Source: an uncultured Gammaproteobacteria bacterium | GTDB lineage: Bacteria; Pseudomonadota; Gammaproteobacteria; DRLM01 | Direction of reading: 5' to 3' | DNA: 64,000 bases | Assembly (NCBI GenBank): GCA_963761035.1 | Contig: CAVXFH010000002.1 | Span: forward strand, 1,738,915-1,802,914 | Part shown: piece by piece, positions 784-37,190 of the stretch | Layout of the letters: every line of letters begins with the position of its first letter | Position numbering within the stretch: position 1 is the stretch's first letter | Notes under the pieces: generated by a model | Seen by the model: only the letters and a program-made list of their open reading frames with translations | The model's database searches: none | What the model was told of the DNA's origin: nothing | Translations under genes and position numbers: made by a program

Positions 784-2973
784 CTATTTGAGTAGATTCT
801 TCAGTTTGTTTTTCAGCTTTTGTTGCAGCTTTTGTTTTTCCTTATCGAGGCGCGCCTTGGCCTTTTGTTTGAGCATCTCGTCGAGATCGGTCGTGAATTT
901 CGGCGCGCTGAGGGTACCTTCCACCCGGATGGGAATCGCGGTGTCTTTATACTGCCCCAATTGCTTGGCCAGTTGCCCGGCGGGTACGGCATCGAGGCGC
1001 AACGCCAAGGCGTCATCGACCAGGTTCACCGTGCCGCGCCCCTTCACGTTCAGTTGCGCCGAGTTGAGCGTCAGGTCTTTGGTCTCGATCAGGCCGTTGC
1101 TGACCGTGGCGGTGGCGGCGAACTTTGAAAATACGGTTTGATCGAGCCTGCCGGCATCGATGCCCAGGCCCTGGATGTACTTTAGGTAATCCTTTTGGAG
1201 CAGCTTGATGAGATTGACGCCGTTGACGTGTCCGTTCTGAAATGAAAAGCCGAGTACGCCGTTGAGGGTTGGTTTGAGCGACTCGGGGCTGAGGCCGGCG
1301 CCGCTCAGTTTTAGATGGAGATTGCCGGTGCCGGCGACCAGATCTTTTTCCAGCAAATCTCTCGTCAAGGGGCCGATCTCAATGCCGCTCAGGGACTCGT
1401 TGATGGAAACCCGCGCCGACTTGCCGCGGGCATCGAGCTGGAGATCGCCGCGATAATCGCCGCCGTAGAGATGGGCCGTCAGGGGTGTGGCGCGGATCAT
1501 CCCCGTCTTGGCGCTGAGGCCCAGCTTGATATCGCTCACGGTCAGTTTGGCAATCTTGAGTTTGCCGATGCCGATATCGCCTTCCACGTCCAGGGCGCGC
1601 AAGGTCTCCAGCGGCAATTCAGCGGCACCCGCGCCGACGGCGGCGGCGGGAGTGGCCACCTTGGCGTTCCCCGCCGTCGGCGGCGGCAGATATCGATCGG
1701 CGTTGATATCGTCCATGGCAAGCTGGAAGCGATAGGCGGGGCGAGCGAAATTTTTAATCGTTGCCTTGCCGGTGATCTGCGTTTGGTCCACCTTGGCTTG
1801 CAACTTGGTGAGTTCCGCGTCCGTTGCCGAGGCGGTGAATTCCACGGTGGCAGCGACTGCGCTGAGGGCTTGTTTGTTCGCGGTAGCGAGCGGCGCGCCG
1901 CGGAAGCGGCCGAGCAGTTCGCGCGCGTCAAAACTGGCAACGCTAAGCTCGCCCGTGAAACGCGGCGCTTCGAGCAAGTGCTGAGCTTGGATCCGGCCGT
2001 TGATCTGGAGATTCCATGCCGCGAGGCTGAGTGGTTCTACCGCCAGTGTTCCTTTCTGAAGATTCACGATCACATCGGCGTTGAGCGCAGCATCCAACTG
2101 TTTGCCGGGCAGCTTGTCGCCGCGCAACGCAACAAGCAACTGCAAACCCTTTAACCGGTAATCCTTGGCGGCGAGGTTGAGCACGGCATCGCTGCTCAGG
2201 GTTAACTTGAGGTCATCCGCCGGGAGGCCTCGACCATGGGCTTGGGCGGTCACTTTCAATCCCTTCAGTTGCAGTGACGGCGTCTCGAAATTATACAACG
2301 CCTGGGTGTTCACCCCGAGGTGCGCGCCGAGGGCGGGCGCAGTGCTCATAATATCGGTGTCCAGTTCCAGGGTGACGGGGGCATGGGGCGCAATCGACCC
2401 GGTATGCAGAGCCAGTTTGCTCAATTCATAGTGGGTTTTATTTTGCAGGTCGTCCCAAATAATCGTGGCGTCCTTAACCTTGACGCCGCCGATGGCGAAG
2501 GTGGTCGCCGTCACGGCCGCGGTGCTTTTGCTCGCGGCGGCGGGCGATGCGGAAGATTGCCGGTTTTTTCCGGACGTCAGGTCGTCCCAATTGGTCTTTC
2601 CCGCTGCATTGCGTATCAGGTGCAGGTAGAGGCCGTCGAGGGTGACGGTATCGACTTCCACGTCTTTCCTGAGCAAGGGCAGCAGCTTGACTTTTACGGC
2701 CGCACCTTCGATCTTGGCGAAGGCTTCCTTGCCGAAGCCGGGGGCATTGCCGAGGCTCATGGCGCCGGTTTCCACCCCCAGCCAGGGAAATAAGGAGAGC
2801 TGCAGATCGCCTTGAACAAGGAGTTCGCGCCCGGTAGCCTTTTCTACCGCCGCGGCGATTTCAGGCTTGAATTTATTAGGGTCGAAAACCAGGAGGACAA
2901 CGATGATCGCGGCGATAAACAAGACCGCAACGCCGCCCAGGGTCCATAGCGTCATCTTCAAGAATCGTTTCAT
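784..2973 (-). CDS. asmA: AsmA family outer-membrane assembly protein
   Basis: 729 aa. N-terminal TM anchor (MKRFLKMTLWTLGGVAVLFIAAIIVVLLVF), long beta-rich body and lysine-rich C-terminal tail typical of AsmA. Its stop abuts the mutY start codon. Confidence 0.8.
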   Translation of the reverse strand: MKRFLKMTLWTLGGVAVLFIAAIIVVLLVFDPNKFKPEIAAAVEKATGRELLVQGDLQLSLFPWLGVETGAMSLGNAPGFGKEAFAKIEGAAVKVKLLPLLRKDVEVDTVTLDGLYLHLIRNAAGKTNWDDLTSGKNRQSSASPAAASKSTAAVTATTFAIGGVKVKDATIIWDDLQNKTHYELSKLALHTGSIAPHAPVTLELDTDIMSTAPALGAHLGVNTQALYNFETPSLQLKGLKVTAQAHGRGLPADDLKLTLSSDAVLNLAAKDYRLKGLQLLVALRGDKLPGKQLDAALNADVIVNLQKGTLAVEPLSLAAWNLQINGRIQAQHLLEAPRFTGELSVASFDARELLGRFRGAPLATANKQALSAVAATVEFTASATDAELTKLQAKVDQTQITGKATIKNFARPAYRFQLAMDDINADRYLPPPTAGNAKVATPAAAVGAGAAELPLETLRALDVEGDIGIGKLKIAKLTVSDIKLGLSAKTGMIRATPLTAHLYGGDYRGDLQLDARGKSARVSINESLSGIEIGPLTRDLLEKDLVAGTGNLHLKLSGAGLSPESLKPTLNGVLGFSFQNGHVNGVNLIKLLQKDYLKYIQGLGIDAGRLDQTVFSKFAATATVSNGLIETKDLTLNSAQLNVKGRGTVNLVDDALALRLDAVPAGQLAKQLGQYKDTAIPIRVEGTLSAPKFTTDLDEMLKQKAKARLDKEKQKLQQKLKNKLKNLLK

Positions 2974-3055
2974 CTGCTTCCCTGGTAGTTGCCAATAGCC
3001 TGAGAATGAATATCATACCGTGACGGCGGGGCGTCGCCTAATAACGCGGTGAACC

Positions 3056-3514
3056 GTGGAGCTGAGAAGGGTCGCCGTGGCGCGGCTGCCGGTTGGAAAG
3101 TTTGGAGGCTCGCTTCTTATTATGACAACGATGGTAACTCGTCCTATCCTCGTCAAGAGTGGTGACGCCGTCAATGACGGTGTCTTGCATCTGCAGGCCT
3201 TCAACGACCGGGAGCGCAAGATCCGCGCCGCGAAAATATGGGGGTTGATGTGGCTGTTCGCCGTATTGTCGCTGCCTATCATCATCGCGCACTTCGTGCT
3301 GGTGCCCGGTTTCCTGATCGCGGGACCGGTGATGGCCTATAAGCGTTATCGCGTCTTGGCGGTACCCGATCACGTCAGCGGCAACTGCCCCGCCGGAAAG
3401 GAAGATTTCACACTGCAACTGGAGCCCACCGATCGTCTGCCGATGTGGACCCATTGCCCTGCTTGCGATGCCTCCTTGCACTTGATGGAAAAAGAACAGT
3501 CTTCTCTACCTTAG
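3056..3514 (+). CDS. hypothetical membrane protein with C-terminal CxxC...CxxC zinc-ribbon
   Basis: ORF with two predicted TM helices (LMWLFAVLSLPIIIAHFVLVPGFLIAGPVMAY) and a GNCPAG...HCPACDAS motif. Start uncertain; an internal ATG at ~3122 is possible. Confidence 0.35.
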   Translation: MELRRVAVARLPVGKFGGSLLIMTTMVTRPILVKSGDAVNDGVLHLQAFNDRERKIRAAKIWGLMWLFAVLSLPIIIAHFVLVPGFLIAGPVMAYKRYRVLAVPDHVSGNCPAGKEDFTLQLEPTDRLPMWTHCPACDASLHLMEKEQSSLP

Positions 3515-3747
3515 CCGGGGAAGCCCAGCGCCGGTCAACACGGAATTATTTTATGCGCGCCACTTTTGCCTTTATTATCCTGAGTGTTATGGCGCTGTCC
3601 GCGGTTATCGCCTTGGTTCTGATGCTCTATATGTTGGGCATTATCGGCAATTGATCGCGGGCGCCGTCTTAGCTTGCTTTGTAGCCGCTGTAGTGTGATT
3701 ATTTTACAAATACTCTCATTAGCAATACTTTAAACAGAGAAAGCAAG

Positions 3748-4233
3748 GTGGAAATTGTGAGTGACTATTGTGTGGTGACCGTTGACAGCAGCCGGGCCCG
3801 GTTCTTTATCCTGGCGCCGGCAAGCCAGCCCGAAGTGGAGTCGGGACCGGCCTTGGTGGAACAGGGCGAAGACCTGATCAATGCGGAGACGCAGCTCCCC
3901 GGGCGGGAACTGTGGAGCGACACGGCGGCGGGCGGCGAAAACCATACCTTCGACGATCATCGCGATAAGCATGCCGATGAATTCAAGCGCCGTTTTGCTA
4001 AGTTGGTGGCGGGGCAGGCGGTAAAGCTCGCCGGACGCACTAAAGCGAAGACGCTGGTGGTGGTGGCAGAAAAACAGATGCTCGGTTTTCTGCGCAATGA
4101 AATGCACCTCTCGCCGAAGGCGGAATTTACAGTGCGCGAATTCGCCAAGGACTTGAGCCGTCTGTCGCCGCAGGATTTGCAAAGTCATTTGGCGGCCGAG
4201 GGTCTGGTGCCGTCGCGCCAGCGCCGGTCGTAA
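3748..4233 (+). CDS. host-attachment-family protein (Host_attach/PF10116-like)
   Basis: 161 aa. The N-terminal motif CVVTVDSSRARFFIL resembles the WVVVADGSRARIF signature of the 'protein required for attachment to host cells' family. GTG start at 3748, or GTG at 3757 with an AAGGTGG RBS. Confidence 0.55.
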   Translation: MEIVSDYCVVTVDSSRARFFILAPASQPEVESGPALVEQGEDLINAETQLPGRELWSDTAAGGENHTFDDHRDKHADEFKRRFAKLVAGQAVKLAGRTKAKTLVVVAEKQMLGFLRNEMHLSPKAEFTVREFAKDLSRLSPQDLQSHLAAEGLVPSRQRRS

Positions 4234-4288
4234 ACCGCGACCGTCGCGTCGGCTGCTTGTTTATTAGGGTAAGATTGTGCGGAGAAGG

Positions 4289-4362
4289 TGGAGCGGGTGA
4301 TGGGAATCGAACCCACGCTAGTAGCTTGGGAAGCTACAGTTCTACCATTGAACTACACCCGC
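4289..4362 (-). tRNA. tRNA-Gly (anticodon CCC)
   Basis: Reverse complement GCGGGTGTAGTTCAATGGTAGAACTGTAGCTTCCCAAGCTACTAGCGTGGGTTCGATTCCCATCACCCGCTCCA folds as a cloverleaf. Anticodon loop TTCCCAA; near-identical to E. coli glyU; CCA encoded. Confidence 0.92.
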
Positions 4363-4626
4363 AAATTCGCAGAGTCCCAATAGTTTACAACCGCTGGGGT
4401 TGAACAGTCGAGCCAAACTGGTATGACTTCCGCTACGACTCGGAATGTGGGTCGACAGCTAGTATTTGGTAATAGAAAACAATAAGCCCAGCTCATTTGG
4501 ACCGTCCTCTTATTGGTAGGGTAGGGATTTTTTTAACGGAATTGTAGTCTAACCCTTGGATCATAATTATCAAAAGCGTATCATGAAATTATAGTAGTCG
4601 CGACGTAGCTAATCAGGGGTGTCCAA

Positions 4627-5094
4627 ATGTCGTATCAGAGGGGTGTTTTAATCCTAAGCTTGGCTCTCGTACTTTTGGGTATGGGCGTCACAGTTGGATG
4701 CCGTGCTGACGGGGTAACTGCGCCGCGAGCAGTATTTGGGTCCCAGAACGCCACCCTCCTTCTGTGCGCCGTGGACTTCTCCCCATGCATTTCCGCCGTC
4801 CCGTCTTCTCAGAGGACCGCGCACAATGCCGGACGGCAGGGTAGCATCGAAGTCCGTCCGCTACAACTTGCGTCTGGCGGGCGTGGCGCGAATGCTGGAT
4901 GGCAAACCTCGGGCAAGTCTGCGTCCGGCAGAGAGGTTAATTTCAGCGTGGCTTCCTCGGGAGCGGATACAGATGCCAATGGAAGGTTCGCGCTCAATGT
5001 GACGCTGGATAGTCACTATCACGGCGCCATTTACAACAGCCAGGATCCTTTCGAGCCCATGCAGGTTTCCCTTAACTACGTCCGTGCCTGGTAG
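4627..5094 (+). CDS. hypothetical small secreted/exported protein (doubtful)
   Basis: 155 aa ORF with a good RBS (AGGGGTG-N5-ATG) and a hydrophobic N-terminus (VLILSLALVLLGMGVTVGC). Lies in an otherwise non-coding-looking region and contains one copy of a 41 bp repeat. No recognisable family. Confidence 0.3.
   Translation: MSYQRGVLILSLALVLLGMGVTVGCRADGVTAPRAVFGSQNATLLLCAVDFSPCISAVPSSQRTAHNAGRQGSIEVRPLQLASGGRGANAGWQTSGKSASGREVNFSVASSGADTDANGRFALNVTLDSHYHGAIYNSQDPFEPMQVSLNYVRAW
4765..4805. repeat. 41 bp direct repeat, copy 1 (TGCGCCGTGGACTTCTCCCCATGCATTTCCGCCGTCCCGTC)
   Basis: Matches 5306..5345 with 2 mismatches. Confidence 0.9.
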
Positions 5095-5264
5095 TAGCGA
5101 CCCGCTAACGTAATTGCGGGCATAGTGTTCTAGTTTCTTCCGTGCTTATTCGGTTGTATCCCATAGCCATGACCGGTTGTGTGTTGAGCATCTGCATTTC
5201 ACCGAAGCAGCCGTGACTATGGACTGTTGCCACTCATCTATATTGATTAGCGTTCATAGCCCGG

Positions 5265-5299
5265 TAGGGCGTAATAACCGAAGGGCATTACGCCCTACT
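5265..5299. repeat. perfect 12 bp inverted repeat (GTAGGGCGTAAT-N11-ATTACGCCCTAC), potential stem-loop
   Basis: Read directly from the sequence; sits 7 bp upstream of repeat copy 2. Confidence 0.85.
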
Positions 5300-5305
5300 G
5301 CACAG

Positions 5306-5345
5306 TGCGCCGAGGACTTCTCCCCATGCATTTCCGCCGTCCCGT
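5306..5345. repeat. 41 bp direct repeat, copy 2
   Basis: TGCGCCGAGGACTTCTCCCCATGCATTTCCGCCGTCCCGT; non-coding context. Confidence 0.9.
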
Positions 5346-5445
5346 TACGGTAACCTACTCATGGACCTGACGGAAATTAGCGTTTATTCTTCTTATAAAT
5401 CCTGTGGGATGGATCGGTGTAACCGGCAAAGGGAGGGCGTAAACA

Positions 5446-6813
5446 ATGAAGAAGATTCTTCTTATTAATCCGGCCTACAGCGAGAGTCTCCACTCGAACA
5501 TCAAGGTGCTGACGATTCCCCCTCTGAACCTGGCGATGATCGCGCGTTATACGCCGGAACACTACGACGTAGAGATCGTCGACGAGGCGGTTGAGCATCT
5601 CGACATCGAGGCGCCGGCCGATCTGGTCGGCATCACCTGCATGACGCCGCTCGCGCCTCGCGCCTACGAGATAGCGCAGAGCTTCCGCACGCGCGGCGTG
5701 CCGGTAGTCATGGGCGGTATTCATGTATCCTATATGACGGACGAGGCCCTGCGCTATGCCGACGCGGTCGTGGCGGGCGAGGGCGAGAACTTGTGGCCGC
5801 GGTTGTTGCAGGATTTTGAACAGGGGCGAATGCAGAAGGTATATCGCAGCTGCGATCAGCCTGAAATCGAGAATCTGCGGGCGCCGCGAAGGGACCTGCT
5901 GCGCGGTAAGTATTTCGTGGAGACCGTGCAGACCGGCCGCGGCTGTCCGATCAACTGCAACTTCTGCTCGGTCACGGCATTCAACGGGCCGCGTTACCGC
6001 CTGCGCGATATCGACAACGTGATTAGCGAGATCCATGGGATCAAGTCGAAGCGCATTTTCATCGTCGATGACAATATCGTCGGCGCCGGCATGAAGTACA
6101 TCCGGCGCACCAAGGAGCTGTTCGATCGTCTGCGGGAGTGCGGCAAGGAGTGGGGAGGGCAGACCTGCCTCAACATCGTGGAGCACGAGGACGTACTCAA
6201 ATCGGCGGCGCGCAGCGGCTGCAAGGGCTTCCTGATCGGCTTTGAATCGCTTGACGCCGAGACGATCGGCGCCTTCCACAAGCCGGTCAACCTGCGGGCC
6301 AATACCCGCAACTTCCGGGACGCCATCAAGAAGATACACGATCACGGCATCGCCATCGTCGGTTGCTTTATCTTCGGCGCCGATACCCAGGGCAAAGATG
6401 CGTTTCGGCGCACCGTGGATTTCGTCCTGGAGAACGAGATCGACGCCGTGCAGATGACGCTCGAGACGCCGCTGCCCGGCACGGCGTTCTATCGGCAGAT
6501 GGTCGACGAGCAGCGCCTGCTGCTTACCAATTACCCACAAGACTGGAAACACTACAACATCGTAGAACCGGTGTTCCGCATGAAGGGCATGACCCCGAGC
6601 GAGGCCTATGAGGGCCTATTGAATGCGTATAGCGAGGTATCGTCATTCAAAACCTCTTTGCTGCGCGGTCTGCGGACATTCAGGAAAACGCGCAGTCTAT
6701 TCAGCACGGGTATCTCCTTCTCCTGGAACTATCACGCTTATAAGACGATCAGGAATACCCCGACGCCGCTGGCGGCTTTGGATGAGGCAAATCGCTTGCC
6801 CGTGACTGCTTGA
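5446..6813 (+). CDS. B12-binding domain radical SAM protein (class B rSAM, methyltransferase-like)
   Basis: 455 aa. N-terminal cobalamin-binding Rossmann region (KVLTIPPLNLAMIARY...VGITCMT) followed by a CxxxCxxC rSAM cluster (GCPINCNFCS). RBS GGAGGG upstream. Confidence 0.8.
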   Translation: MKKILLINPAYSESLHSNIKVLTIPPLNLAMIARYTPEHYDVEIVDEAVEHLDIEAPADLVGITCMTPLAPRAYEIAQSFRTRGVPVVMGGIHVSYMTDEALRYADAVVAGEGENLWPRLLQDFEQGRMQKVYRSCDQPEIENLRAPRRDLLRGKYFVETVQTGRGCPINCNFCSVTAFNGPRYRLRDIDNVISEIHGIKSKRIFIVDDNIVGAGMKYIRRTKELFDRLRECGKEWGGQTCLNIVEHEDVLKSAARSGCKGFLIGFESLDAETIGAFHKPVNLRANTRNFRDAIKKIHDHGIAIVGCFIFGADTQGKDAFRRTVDFVLENEIDAVQMTLETPLPGTAFYRQMVDEQRLLLTNYPQDWKHYNIVEPVFRMKGMTPSEAYEGLLNAYSEVSSFKTSLLRGLRTFRKTRSLFSTGISFSWNYHAYKTIRNTPTPLAALDEANRLPVTA

Positions 6814-6981
6814 TCCCGCCGCGGCAAGGTGTACCGGCATGGGATTGGTAGGCTCGCCGTTACCGGTGGCACCGGCCCGGACAAATCCCGCGCTACCGGG
6901 GCGTAAAGCAACACTCCCGAACGGCCTGTGCGCCAATAGGCGCTGAGTATCGCCTCGCCGCCGCTTTAAAAGTTAGTTTTA

Positions 6982-7332
6982 TTATTCGCCCGGAATATTT
7001 TCCGGTTTCGACTTGAGCTGTCGCAGAAAGGCTTTAGTTTTATCGAGAAATACGGGAGTCAGTCCCGCGTCTTCGTAAATCGGATCGTTATAATCATCTT
7101 TGGCGATAATCCTTTCCCCTTTTTCGTAAGGGAAGGCCTCTACCAATTCATCGAGCGCCGCGCCGAGCAAGTCCGTAATGATCTGAGTTTCGGTTCGCGC
7201 AGGATACATGTCCGCCAGCGCCATGATCCTTGCCGCGTCATGAAGCGGCAATTTGACGGTGAATTCTCTCGCGGCCATTTTACCCGCTCCACGCTGTTCC
7301 CAGTACTTGGACAAATCCCGTATCTTCATCAT
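6982..7332 (-). CDS. hypothetical protein, possible ribbon-helix-helix DNA-binding fold
   Basis: 116 aa; the FTVKLPLHDAARIMALADMY..TETQIITDLLGAALDEL pattern (beta-strand then two helices) is RHH-like. No family assigned. Confidence 0.4.
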   Translation of the reverse strand: MMKIRDLSKYWEQRGAGKMAAREFTVKLPLHDAARIMALADMYPARTETQIITDLLGAALDELVEAFPYEKGERIIAKDDYNDPIYEDAGLTPVFLDKTKAFLRQLKSKPENIPGE

Positions 7333-7759
7333 TATTCTCCGCGGTTAAGGCTTTGACTCATGCCCAATTAAGCACGTCGTAATGAGACGTAAAGCTATCC
7401 GTCTTCTTGCGGATAGGCAAGCATAAAATATAGTGGATATTCATTTCTTATTTTCCTCATCGGCGGCTCGTGCAACATACTTCTCGCCGGCGCCGCTACG
7501 AAACCGCGGCGACAATACAGCCTTTACTTGGCCGGTGCAGATTGAGAAGTTGACGGTCCTTGATGTGATTCCGCAAGAGTGGCCGGCCAAGGATGTCATG
7601 CGTAACAATGTACCGGTGCCGATCATCGCCGGTCAGGCGGTTCCATTGATTCCTTGGGAAGTCAACCTCCAGACCAGTGACTGTTCACCCCCATCGGTTG
7701 TAGACTATTTGGAATCGGAAAGTTTGCGAGTGTAGTTCGACCGGGAACTGTATGCCCGA

Positions 7760-7987
7760 TTGTTTGGCCGGGAAAGGAGCGAATTTGTGGAAGTGGTAGT
7801 CAATGGCGAATCGCGCCGGCTCCCGGAAGGAATTACGATAGCGCAATTGCTGGAAACAATGGCCTTATCGGGTAAGCGCCTGGCCGTGGAAGTCAATCTC
7901 GAGATCGTGCCGCGCAGTACCCACGGTGTTCACAAACTGCAACCCGGTGACCGGATCGAGATCGTGCATGCCATTGGCGGCGGTTAG
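7760..7987 (+). CDS. thiS: sulfur carrier protein ThiS
   Basis: C-terminal ...IEIVHAIGGG (GG terminus), ~67 aa core. Likely true start is the GTG at 7787 (VEVVVNGE...). Directly upstream of thiG. Confidence 0.75.
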   Translation: MFGRERSEFVEVVVNGESRRLPEGITIAQLLETMALSGKRLAVEVNLEIVPRSTHGVHKLQPGDRIEIVHAIGGG

Positions 7988-8046
7988 ACTCCTCCCATCC
8001 GGGGTATAATCGCCTCCGTCATATGCTGAAATATTAGGATCTAGCC

Positions 8047-8838
8047 ATGTCACAGACAATCAGCGATCCATTGATCATCGCCGGCGTCGCCTATCGATCC
8101 CGGCTGTTGGTGGGCACCGGCAAGTACCGCGATCTGGAGGAAACCCGCGCCGCGGTCACCGCTAGCGGCGCCGAGATCGTCACCGTGGCGGTGCGCCGCA
8201 CCAATATCGGCCAACAGCCCGGCGAACCCAGCCTGCTGGAGGTATTGCCGCGAGATCATTATACCTATCTGCCCAACACCGCCGGTTGTTACACCGCGGC
8301 AGACGCTATCCGCACCTGTCGCCTGGCCCGCGAGTTGCTGGACGGCCACGAGTTGGTGAAACTGGAAGTGCTGGGCGACGAGAAGACCTTGTTTCCCGAC
8401 ATCGTGCAAACTATCGCCGCCGCCGAAGTCTTGATCAAGGAGGGCTTCAAGGTGATGGTCTACACCAATGATGATCCGATCATCGCCAAGCGCTTCGAGG
8501 CCATGGGGTGCGTGGCGGTGATGCCCTTGGCGGCGCCCATCGGCTCGGGTCTGGGCATACGCAATCCCTACAACATCCTTACCATCGTCGAAAACGCCGA
8601 GGTGCCGATTCTGGTGGATGCCGGCGTGGGCACTGCCTCCGATGCCGCGGTGGCCATGGAACTGGGTTGCGACGGCGTCTTGATGAACACCGCCATCGCC
8701 GGCGCGCGGCAGCCGGTGCTGATGGCCGCGGCGATGAAGAAGGCCATCGAAGCGGGACGCGAGGCCTATCGCGCCGGACGCATTCCTCGCAAAAGATTTG
8801 CCAGCGCCTCTTCACCGGTCGACGGCACGTTTTTCTAA
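8047..8838 (+). CDS. thiG: thiazole synthase ThiG
   Basis: 263 aa, strong ThiG similarity (LLVGTGKY...[16 protein letters not shown]...[15 protein letters not shown]). Confidence 0.92.
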
Positions 8839-8922
8839 AGAAATGGACGCAGAGAACATCTAAATTAGAAAAATAATTTTTTCTCTGTGCGCTATGGTCA
8901 TTTCAGCGCCTGTGCGTTATTC

Positions 8923-33097: not shown

Positions 33098-33427
33098 TTA
33101 GGCGGGAGAAACGAGGGGTGGTGCGCGGGTGCGACGGTCGGTGCCGATCAACTTTGCCAAACGGAAATGACGTGTATAAAACTCCAACAAACGGACGATT
33201 ACAACTGCCATGGCAAGCATCGCCATGCCCACCAAGGCGTCGCCTAGCGCAGGAACGCTGAGATCAAGAGAATATAAGGCATCGGCGATAGAGCTGATAT
33301 CGCCGATGTCATAGTCGGAAAAATAATAGTTGCTCGCGAACGACGTGGTTTGCCCAACCAACAGCGCTATCACAATGATATAGCTGAAAAATCGGTTCAT
33401 AAGTTCCTGCGACGTTCTCGCGTCCAC
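33098..33427 (-). CDS. hypothetical small membrane protein (doubtful)
   Basis: ORF with two hydrophobic segments; no family; low-GC context. Confidence 0.25.
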   Translation of the reverse strand: MDARTSQELMNRFFSYIIVIALLVGQTTSFASNYYFSDYDIGDISSIADALYSLDLSVPALGDALVGMAMLAMAVVIVRLLEFYTRHFRLAKLIGTDRRTRAPPLVSPA

Positions 33428-36485: not shown

Positions 36486-36605
36486 GCAACACGGCTGTTC
36501 CGGTGGGCTTGACGGTTATTGTATACAAAAAAGGGGTGCCGCCTGTTGTTGGACGTGGCGGCACCCCGTGGCGTTGTTTGGCCGATCGGCTTAGGCGCGG
36601 ATTAC

Positions 36606-37190
36606 TTACATACCTTTGTCCATGGGCATGTCACCGTGATGCAAGGGCATTTTCCCGTGCATCTTGTCCTTCTCATGAGGGTGCATTTTCCACATGTCCT
36701 TGAGGGCCTGCTTTTGTTCGGCGGTCAGCAGCGCCTTGATGTCGTGCATTTGCGCTATGTAGGCATGCCATAGCTGGGATTCCATCTTGCCAACCTTGTC
36801 AATGAGGCCGTCGGCCTCATTGACATTGATATCATCGGCGAAGATTGCTCGGGCGACATCGCCGTAAGACGCCTTGAGTTGTTCCTCCGTCTTGGCGTTC
36901 TTGTCTATGTAGTCGTCGCGCAGCTTGGTGAGCTGTTTGACCTGTTCGTCGGTCAATTTGAGGGCTGAACTCATCTTCAGAAAATGGGCGGCCGCGTTAT
37001 GGGGTTGCATGCCCTGCATGCCGTGCTCCATGCCATGACCCATGCCGTGACAATGATCATCCATGGACATGCCGGGGTGGCCGCCCATCTCCGGATGGGC
37101 CCAGGCCGTCGTACCCAGGGTAAAGAAAGCGGCAGCCACCATGCCGATTAAGGCGCCAGTTCGGTTTGCGTTCCCCTTCGAATTCTTCAT
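36606..37190 (-). CDS. His/Met-rich periplasmic protein of the CpxP/Spy/ZraP (LTxxQ) family
   Basis: Signal peptide. His/Met-rich N- and C-terminal tails (HCHGMGHGMEHGMQGMQPH; MHPHEKDKMHGKMPLHHGDMPMDKGM). Two LTxxQ motifs (LTDEQVKQL, LTAEQKQAL). Confidence 0.7.
   Translation of the reverse strand: MKNSKGNANRTGALIGMVAAAFFTLGTTAWAHPEMGGHPGMSMDDHCHGMGHGMEHGMQGMQPHNAAAHFLKMSSALKLTDEQVKQLTKLRDDYIDKNAKTEEQLKASYGDVARAIFADDINVNEADGLIDKVGKMESQLWHAYIAQMHDIKALLTAEQKQALKDMWKMHPHEKDKMHGKMPLHHGDMPMDKGM

Follow-up and report, generated by a model that had tools for sequence, protein, structure and literature searches.

A REP-type palindrome and a templated 41-nt patch at a probable recombination scar in an accessory islet between tRNA-Gly(CCC) and thiS

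REPs (repetitive extragenic palindromes) are GTAG-tagged palindromes of 20–40 bp (PMC3733652) that can pair as inverted doublets termed REPINs (PMC3116915), and this architecture is associated with the REP-associated tyrosine transposases, or RAYTs (PMC3733652, PMC2817692, PMC3116915). TnpA_REP cuts at CT and CA dinucleotides flanking REPs (PMC8266576). Among the general roles of REPs are mRNA stabilisation and termination (PMC3733652), and REPs have been documented at the joins of duplications (Shyamala et al. 1990, EMBO J 9:939). Here we describe a segment (positions 4363–5445) of a 64-kb stretch of the 3.02-Mb genome of an uncultured gammaproteobacterium; we refer to the whole stretch as the window. 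The segment lies between a tRNA-Gly(CCC) gene and a gene for a B12-binding radical S-adenosylmethionine (rSAM) protein. It is a mosaic rather than one element, and consists of the tRNA promoter, a truncated two-gene cassette, a REP-type palindrome, a 41-nt patch and the rSAM leader. We consider it fairly probable that the segment is the left part of an accessory islet (4410–7678) built up in the spacer between tRNA-Gly and thiS, and that the junction inside it is a scar of illegitimate recombination. An earlier, sequence-only reading of the segment had listed the tRNA-Gly(CCC) gene, an AT-rich stretch, a 155-aa open reading frame (ORF155) with a Shine-Dalgarno (SD) sequence, a 41-nt repeat and a perfect hairpin, and all of these were recovered exactly where it had placed them.

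Relatives of the locus were fetched via the neighbouring Host_attach/baeRF family-12 gene (3748–4233), which lies directly 3′ of tRNA-Gly(CCC). Comparing the tRNA-Gly locus across these relatives, as the sequence-only reading had proposed, defined the boundaries of an insertion. The three nearest reference genomes (L022–L024) are uncultured gammaproteobacterial metagenome-assembled genomes with 63–67% amino-acid identity in the baeRF gene. In all three the pairing with the tRNA is kept: the order is an AsmA-like gene, a small ORF, the baeRF gene, tRNA-Gly(CCC) on the minus strand, thiS on the plus strand, thiG and trmB. The gap from tRNA to thiS is 78–230 nt in these genomes versus 3.4 kb in the window, where thiS starts with GTG at 7787 and its product has a ThiS Pfam match. 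The extra DNA (4410–7678) holds ORF155, the rSAM gene and a third gene, ORF116. Because the relatives have tRNA-Gly directly beside thiS, and because a 60-nt inverted repeat brackets the block, the region is an insertion: the tRNA-Gly/thiS spacer in the window contains an inserted block. Since the tRNA is encoded on the minus strand, the segment occupies its 5′, promoter side. The AT-rich stretch shows as a GC content of 0.405–0.425 in the 200-nt windows starting at 4400 and 4500, with about 0.55–0.65 on either side. L020, from another sample of this species and 99.7% identical over window 1729–5463, has the identical arrangement, which is thus stable there.

The two parts that meet in the segment can each be followed into other genomes. 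On the left, DNA homology to other ORF155 loci is confined to window 4497–5260, with 87.6% identity to the closest locus, L008. It starts at 4497 with L008 and L009, and it ends at 5247 with L002 and at 5151 with L011. By these alignments the ORF155 cassette is the interval 4497–5260. On the right, the informative genome is L021, a close relative that is 93% identical to the window over 5341–6826 and 7634–9340 (the rSAM and thiS genes) and aligns to it nowhere else. The L021 locus has a response-regulator gene, 577 nt, the rSAM gene, one arm of the inverted repeat (arm 2) and thiS, and it is without the tRNA, ORF155, the hairpin, the second 41-mer and the ORF116 cassette. Cassette homology stops at 5260, the REP and the second 41-mer follow, and an L021-type leader begins at about 5341; the order is therefore cassette, REP, 41-nt patch, rSAM leader.

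The 41-nt direct repeat (4764–4804 and 5305–5345) is identical at 40/41 positions, and two matches were obtained in 0/100 dinucleotide shuffles. Copy 1 lies within ORF155. Copy 2 matches copy 1 of the window itself at 98% identity, compared with 90% for the stretch in L008 and 85% for that in L011, which indicates a local and fairly recent copying event. The two 41-mers have unrelated flanks and thus sharp edges, and no other ORF155 fragment occurs in the window. Judged by its identity and its edges, copy 2 is a patch with sharp edges whose source is the interior of ORF155. The idea that the region holds a degraded duplicate of ORF155 was thus correct as to the origin of the downstream 41-mer; a long decayed second copy was rejected on account of the unrelated flanks and the lack of further fragments. 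The base at 4768 in window copy 1 is G, as in copy 2, and is A in L020 and in the family consensus. This pattern suggests that the copies underwent gene conversion or that recombination with a different allele took place.

Both edges of the patch fall on sequence boundaries. Copy 2 starts 6 nt past the REP arm (CCCTACTGCACA/GTGCGCC, with the slash marking the join), and homology to L021 begins at about 5341, the right end of copy 2. At this right join the window reads CCGTCCCGT/TACGGTAACCTACTC and L021 reads GTTGCCCCGC/TACGGCAAATTACTC, with CCCG as microhomology; the patch end CCCGT/TACGG faces GCCCCGC/TACGG in the L021 leader. The left join has 1 nt of microhomology and the right join has 4 nt.

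In microhomology-mediated break-induced replication and template-switch models, junctions mediated by microhomology carry templated insertions. On such a model, illegitimate recombination mediated by microhomology would have joined the ORF155 block, which ends in the REP, to the rSAM leader. Most simply, this would have been a template switch during break repair, or during replication stalled at the REP hairpin, in which synthesis re-primed 541 nt upstream in ORF155, copied 41 nt and switched to the leader via CCCG. A two-step route would be nearly as likely: 4764–5304 would first have been duplicated in tandem with the REP as anchor, and a deletion to the leader would have come second. The 41-nt copy itself is most likely inert, without a function of its own. 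A CA dinucleotide, a cleavage site of the TnpA_REP type, precedes the left join, which is only suggestive. A bolder interpretation would make the tRNA-Gly/thiS spacer of this gammaproteobacterial lineage a hotspot that captures promoter-proximal cassettes via REP/RAYT-type single-strand cleavage and strand transfer, with the REP, the patch after CA and the inverted tRNA duplicate as its footprints; in a variant of this proposal the rSAM mRNA would have acquired, with the patch, a module from ORF155 that is regulatory or codes for a peptide. If true, REP-associated transposases would be assembling accessory islets in a manner that has not been described before, and we regard this interpretation as very unlikely.

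The sequence-only reading had named a known element such as a REP as something that would refute it, and the hairpin at the junction turned out to be a REP-type palindrome that recurs in unrelated contigs. It is formed by the inverted repeat GTAGGGCGTAAT-N11-ATTACGCCCTAC (5264–5275 and 5287–5298; 12 bp, 100% complementary), and as RNA it folds into a 14-bp stem spanning 5262–5300 with an inner CC/GG stem and a GAA loop. Perfect stems of at least 12 bp are rare, with two observed in the window versus about 0.1 expected per shuffled window. The hairpin is extragenic, between the ORF155 stop (5094) and the rSAM start (5446), and the one overlapping reading frame, ORF58, is without coding signal. 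It is absent from L008 and L021 at the corresponding positions. A search of metagenome contigs with the exact arms, GTAGGGCGTAAT-N(4–24)-ATTACGCCCTAC, returned five unrelated contigs, with different loops and nothing else in common with the window. Two of these (L029 and L031) carry three copies each, including inverted pairs about 100–130 nt apart; the copies lie at 3147–3438 in L029 and at 4386–4536 and 6252–6286 in L031. Across ten aligned copies, GTAGGGCGTAAT is invariant, as are 5/6 core positions on the CGCC side, and the loops commonly hold a CGAAG core or a GCGAAGC mini-hairpin. The arm begins GTAGGGCG, and in the asymmetric L029 and L031 copies the GTAG stands outside the palindrome GGCGTAAT..ATTACGCC. 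Because this unit of GTAG plus palindrome recurs in unrelated contigs, partly as inverted doublets, we classified the window hairpin, by its sequence, as a solitary member of a REP-like family. A literature search on the hairpin sequence returned nothing relevant, and this REP sequence family was not found described. Three other strong perfect hairpins occur in the window, at 33280–33308 (11-bp stem), 36533–36567 (11-bp stem) and 36797–36825 (13-bp stem with a 3-nt loop, TGTCAATGAGGCC-GTC-GGCCTCATTGACA); the last two are close together, apparently in a long intergenic region.

The most plausible role of the REP would be a passive one, with the 3′ stem-loop stabilising or partly terminating the ORF155 transcript and setting it apart from the rSAM gene. 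The hairpin could instead be an ordinary factor-independent terminator of ORF155 whose recurrence elsewhere is a coincidence, since its stem is stable and GC-rich and the ORF155 stop codon lies 168 nt upstream of it. We find this unlikely: the terminator scan does not call it, because there is no T-run on either strand, and ORF155 cassettes in other genomes are without the hairpin. Moreover, the five unrelated contigs share 24 identical arm bases, for which we estimate about 0.1 occurrences by chance, and inverted doublets with GTAG heads point to a repeat family.

ORF155 itself had been called doubtful, and here the comparative evidence went the other way. Among 5.8 billion proteins it has 20 full-length homologues (147–157 aa, 60–84% identity), and the start codon is preceded 8 nt upstream by the SD sequence AGGGG. 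All indels in the family alignment are in-frame, 23 columns are invariant, and the C-terminal third is strongly conserved (..LNVTLDSYYHGAIYNSQAPFEPMQVSLNYIRAW). The N-terminus is positively charged and is followed by a hydrophobic core and the motif ..LLGMGVTVGC with an invariant C25; C47 and C54 are also invariant across the homologues. By inspection, TVGC with C25 fits the PROSITE-type lipobox [LVI..][ASTVI][GAS]C, so the N-terminus is probably a signal peptide with a lipobox and the product probably lipid-anchored. In ten pairwise comparisons among five cassettes dN/dS, the ratio of nonsynonymous to synonymous substitution rates, was 0.36–0.63 and below 1 in 10/10, which indicates purifying but relaxed selection on these sequences. 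Given full-length homologues, invariant cysteines and purifying selection, ORF155 is, by comparative sequence analysis, a real gene that belongs to a narrow orphan family whose members are small exported proteins. It has no match in Pfam, NCBIfam or PHROG; a profile search for distant relatives among 1.84 billion representative proteins returned 7 representatives, none tied to a known family, and the AlphaFold model (mean predicted local distance difference test score, 36.7) is unusable. The neighbourhoods of the homologues differ, with hypothetical genes, DinB/SRAP, or a Gp49/helix-turn-helix pair with an S49 peptidase, and none of the fetched homologue loci has a tRNA or rSAM gene nearby.

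The flanks of ORF155 show how the cassette is delimited. At its left end lies a remnant of a 73-aa gene that usually precedes ORF155 homologues. The remnant reads ..LDRPLIGR and GRDFFNGIVV-stop in two frames, compared with SLDRPPIGREFFDKIVV-stop in L009; since only the last ~17 codons are kept, and frameshifted, the cassette was truncated on entry. A T-run at 4528–4536 was considered as an upstream terminator and rejected, as it encodes ..EFFD.. of the 73-aa gene in the relatives. The sigma-70-like promoter match in front of ORF155 is weak evidence, because 2 such sites were found versus 1.1 expected. The 3′ flank is non-coding, because substitutions in the ORF58 frame are spread 6/4/4 over the codon positions.

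Several observations weigh against our reading of the junction as a recombination scar at a REP. Copy counts, which cover the 64-kb window and 262 kb of related loci, gave one REP in the former and none in the latter, so that the multi-copy property of REPs was not seen in the sequence covered. No RAYT-like ORF was found by a crude scan for His-hydrophobic-His (HUH) and Y..NP motifs in the window and all fetched loci. An intermediate genome was not found either, and the formation of the junction is thus a reconstruction. Of the 11 differences between the window and L020, 8 cluster in 870 nt (4495–5361), 3 of them inside the two 41-mers, a hint of function. Two further points belong to particular alternatives, of which the first concerns the rSAM leader and the second a small ORF.

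The REP 3′ arm TTACGCCCT (5288–5296) is complementary to AGGGCGTAA (5434–5442), which overlaps the rSAM SD sequence. This would be expected of a cis-regulatory rSAM leader, in which the hairpin is an anti-sequestering stem, its 3′ arm alternatively pairs with the SD sequence as a translational switch and the 41-mer is a shared site that co-regulates ORF155 and the rSAM gene. The hairpin 5′ arm also resembles the SD region at 16/21 positions, and RNA from 5255 to 5460 folds somewhat better than shuffles (z = -2.0). However, the arm sequence is set by the REP family, with identical arms in 5 unrelated contigs, and L021 has essentially the same SD sequence (GGGGGGCGTAAAC) without any REP. Pairing with the SD sequence is not predicted, because the local 14-bp hairpin dominates all predicted folds; a 376-nt fold gave z = -0.96, and the two 41-mers, being on the same strand, cannot pair with each other. 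The complementarity is therefore best explained as a coincidence. Nor does the leader behave as a structured RNA, as the sequence-only reading had suggested it might be: it is not conserved in other rSAM orthologues, and in Rfam scans, run by E value on 3500–7500 and at the gathering threshold on the whole window, the tRNA was the only hit, the remaining matches being noise at E values of at least 0.45. A regulatory leader is accordingly quite unlikely.

The second point is that both differences between the window and L020 within copy 2 are synonymous in the frame of ORF58, a small ORF of 58 aa from TTG 5177 (or 44 aa from ATG 5221) that ends in ..CAEDFSPCISAVPLR-stop. Copy 2 is in frame in this ORF and keeps both family-invariant cysteines, and the ORF lies 93 nt upstream of the rSAM gene, which has weak matches to some NCBIfam rSAM models for ribosomally synthesised and post-translationally modified peptides (RiPPs). 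A translated cysteine peptide from a partial ORF155 duplication, possibly a RiPP-like rSAM substrate, might be read from this. Two synonymous changes would arise by chance in an estimated ~6% of cases, however, and with n=2 this is not significant. No SD sequence precedes TTG 5177 or ATG 5221, the REP hairpin lies inside the ORF, and the N-terminal two-thirds of the ORF are the cassette 3′ flank, with no codon-position bias. There is no Pfam match, and a comparable ORF is absent from all rSAM orthologue loci examined, including the 93%-identical L021. We consider such a peptide extremely improbable.

The rSAM gene had been described as an orphan, and it is not one, because it belongs to a very large and highly conserved family. 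Its product has 3334 homologues at E<1e-50, the best 120 of which are 73–100% identical and mostly 446 aa long; the window and L021 proteins have 455 aa. All NCBIfam equivalog scores are far below their cut-offs. The family occurs in many Proteobacteria in varied and unrelated genomic contexts, and DNA homology to distant orthologues runs from 5442 (4 nt before the ATG) to 6782 (31 nt before the stop).

At the outer edges of the block, the main curiosity of the locus is that the promoter and 5′ end of the tRNA recur as an inverted duplicate, which brackets the islet and now precedes thiS. Arm 2 lies directly upstream of thiS; it occurs in L021 and is absent from L022–L024. By its position, thiS may now be transcribed from the copied tRNA promoter. 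No TPP (thiamine pyrophosphate) riboswitch or other Rfam family was found upstream of thiS-thiG in window 7400–7786. The neighbouring ORF116 cassette is present in the window and in L001, and represents a second lineage-specific insertion or deletion in the spacer; ORF116 has no match in Pfam, NCBIfam or PHROG, and it does not co-occur with ORF155 at other loci, where this was looked for.

An adjacent tRNA gene, about 3.3 kb of accessory DNA missing in relatives, and direct repeats would all suit what is left of an integrative element that targets tRNA genes, its attL/attR cores being the 41-nt repeats or the repeat derived from the tRNA. The details point elsewhere, and we judge it highly improbable. 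The insertion is on the tRNA 5′/promoter side, and the tRNA-derived repeat is inverted and covers the tRNA 5′ end. The 41-mer is unrelated to the tRNA; its copy 1 lies within conserved coding sequence and is an ordinary coding stretch in ORF155 homologues, and the direct repeats enclose 541 nt only. By Pfam, 0/3 inserted ORFs belong to an integrase family, and BLASTN against plasmids and phages gave no match. An integron attC site was likewise rejected, with no integrase among the inserted ORFs and no R′/R′′ core sites by inspection. The earlier suggestion of a decayed integrated element or attachment-site remnant thus holds insofar as the block is a product of insertion or rearrangement beside the tRNA, which in relatives stands next to thiS; an att signature is absent, as is any integrase match among the inserted ORFs by Pfam.

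Table 1. Coordinates of the features in and around the segment (window positions).
Feature	Position	Strand	Evidence
tRNA-Gly(CCC), intact	4289..4362	-	ARAGORN; Rfam RF00005, 71.2 bits
Inverted-repeat arm 1: first 13 nt of the tRNA and 47 nt of upstream (promoter) region; left edge of the insertion	4350..4409		60 nt, 83% complementary to 7679–7738
Left junction filler	4410..4496		BLASTN against all fetched loci: match in L020 only
Frameshifted remnant (last ~17 codons) of the 73-aa gene usually preceding ORF155 homologues; left end of the cassette	4497..4552	+	Homology to L008/L009
Sigma-70-like promoter match, TTATCA-17-TATAGT, upstream of ORF155	4567..4595	+	Consensus match only
ORF155, encoding a small protein (narrow orphan family) that is exported and probably lipid-anchored	4627..5094	+	155 aa, ATG start, homologues, dN/dS
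41-nt repeat copy 1 (source), ORF155 codons ~46–59 (..CAVDFSPCISAVP..)	4764..4804	+	Repeat search, alignment
Conserved 3′ flank of the ORF155 cassette; right end ~5260	5095..5260	+	Homology to L008, L002, L011
Solitary GTAG-tagged REP-type palindrome (GTAG-GGCGTAAT-loop-ATTACGCC-CTAC)	5262..5300		Exact-arm recurrence in metagenome contigs
41-nt repeat copy 2, putative templated patch or duplication scar joining the ORF155/REP block to the rSAM leader	5305..5345	+	Identity to copy 1, sharp edges, L021 breakpoint
rSAM leader with SD sequence GGGAGGG	5341..5445	+	Common only to L021, 73% identity
B12-binding rSAM gene, 455 aa, part of the inserted block	5446..6813	+	Pfam B12-binding and Radical_SAM
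ORF116 cassette (gene 6982–7332, minus strand, 116 aa)	6827..7633	-	Absent from L021; no family match
Inverted-repeat arm 2: copy of the tRNA-Gly promoter region and first ~27 nt of the tRNA (7726–7752); right edge of the insertion	7679..7752	+	Repeat search and alignment

For annotation, these results argue for keeping ORF155 as a real gene of a small, lineage-restricted family of exported proteins, for labelling the hairpin a REP-type repeat rather than a candidate noncoding RNA, and for labelling the 41-nt repeat a duplication scar. The locus is a compact and well-bounded example of accessory genes stacking in a tRNA/thiS spacer, in which the stub of a truncated gene, the REP at the join, the templated patch and the microhomology remain legible as signatures of the junction. 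What is new here is all of known kinds: a family of orphan lipoprotein-like genes, a REP sequence family not described before, and the junction scar. We found no support for a noncoding RNA, a riboswitch, an att site or a peptide. The locus is best described as ordinary genome wear, with no new RNA or mobile element, and it leaves current understanding unchallenged.

Collectively, the locus shares features with several described systems and departs from each. Like the REPs and REPINs of E. coli (REP/BIME, the latter being bacterial interspersed mosaic elements) and Pseudomonas fluorescens, the window hairpin is a 35–39-nt extragenic perfect palindrome headed by GTAG, and its unit is found identical in unrelated genomes, sometimes as the inverted doublets described above. 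The 41-mer join just after CA, 6 nt 3′ of the stem, likewise recalls the CT/CA cleavage sites of TnpA_REP (PMC8266576). Unlike the E. coli REP, in which GTAG is an unpaired head, the window hairpin has GTAG within the stem on both sides, and it differs from REP/REPIN systems in its single copy in 64 kb, with none in 262 kb of related loci, and in the lack of a RAYT in the motif scan. As with REP join-points and templated insertions, a tract copied from 541 nt away stands beside a REP hairpin at a synteny breakpoint; the difference is that the event in the window is read from a single end-state. The charged N-terminus, hydrophobic core and TVGC with invariant C25 of ORF155 resemble those of bacterial lipoproteins, the substrates of signal peptidase II, although ORF155 is without a recognisable domain and its lipobox was assigned by inspection. 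Finally, as in tRNA-linked genomic islands and islets, accessory genes (ORF155, rSAM, ORF116) gather beside a tRNA and their content varies among close relatives. Unlike those islands, which would carry an integrase and a direct repeat of the tRNA 3′ end, the window insertion has neither (by Pfam for the inserted ORFs) and sits on the tRNA 5′ side, where it has an inverted duplicate of the promoter and tRNA 5′ end instead.

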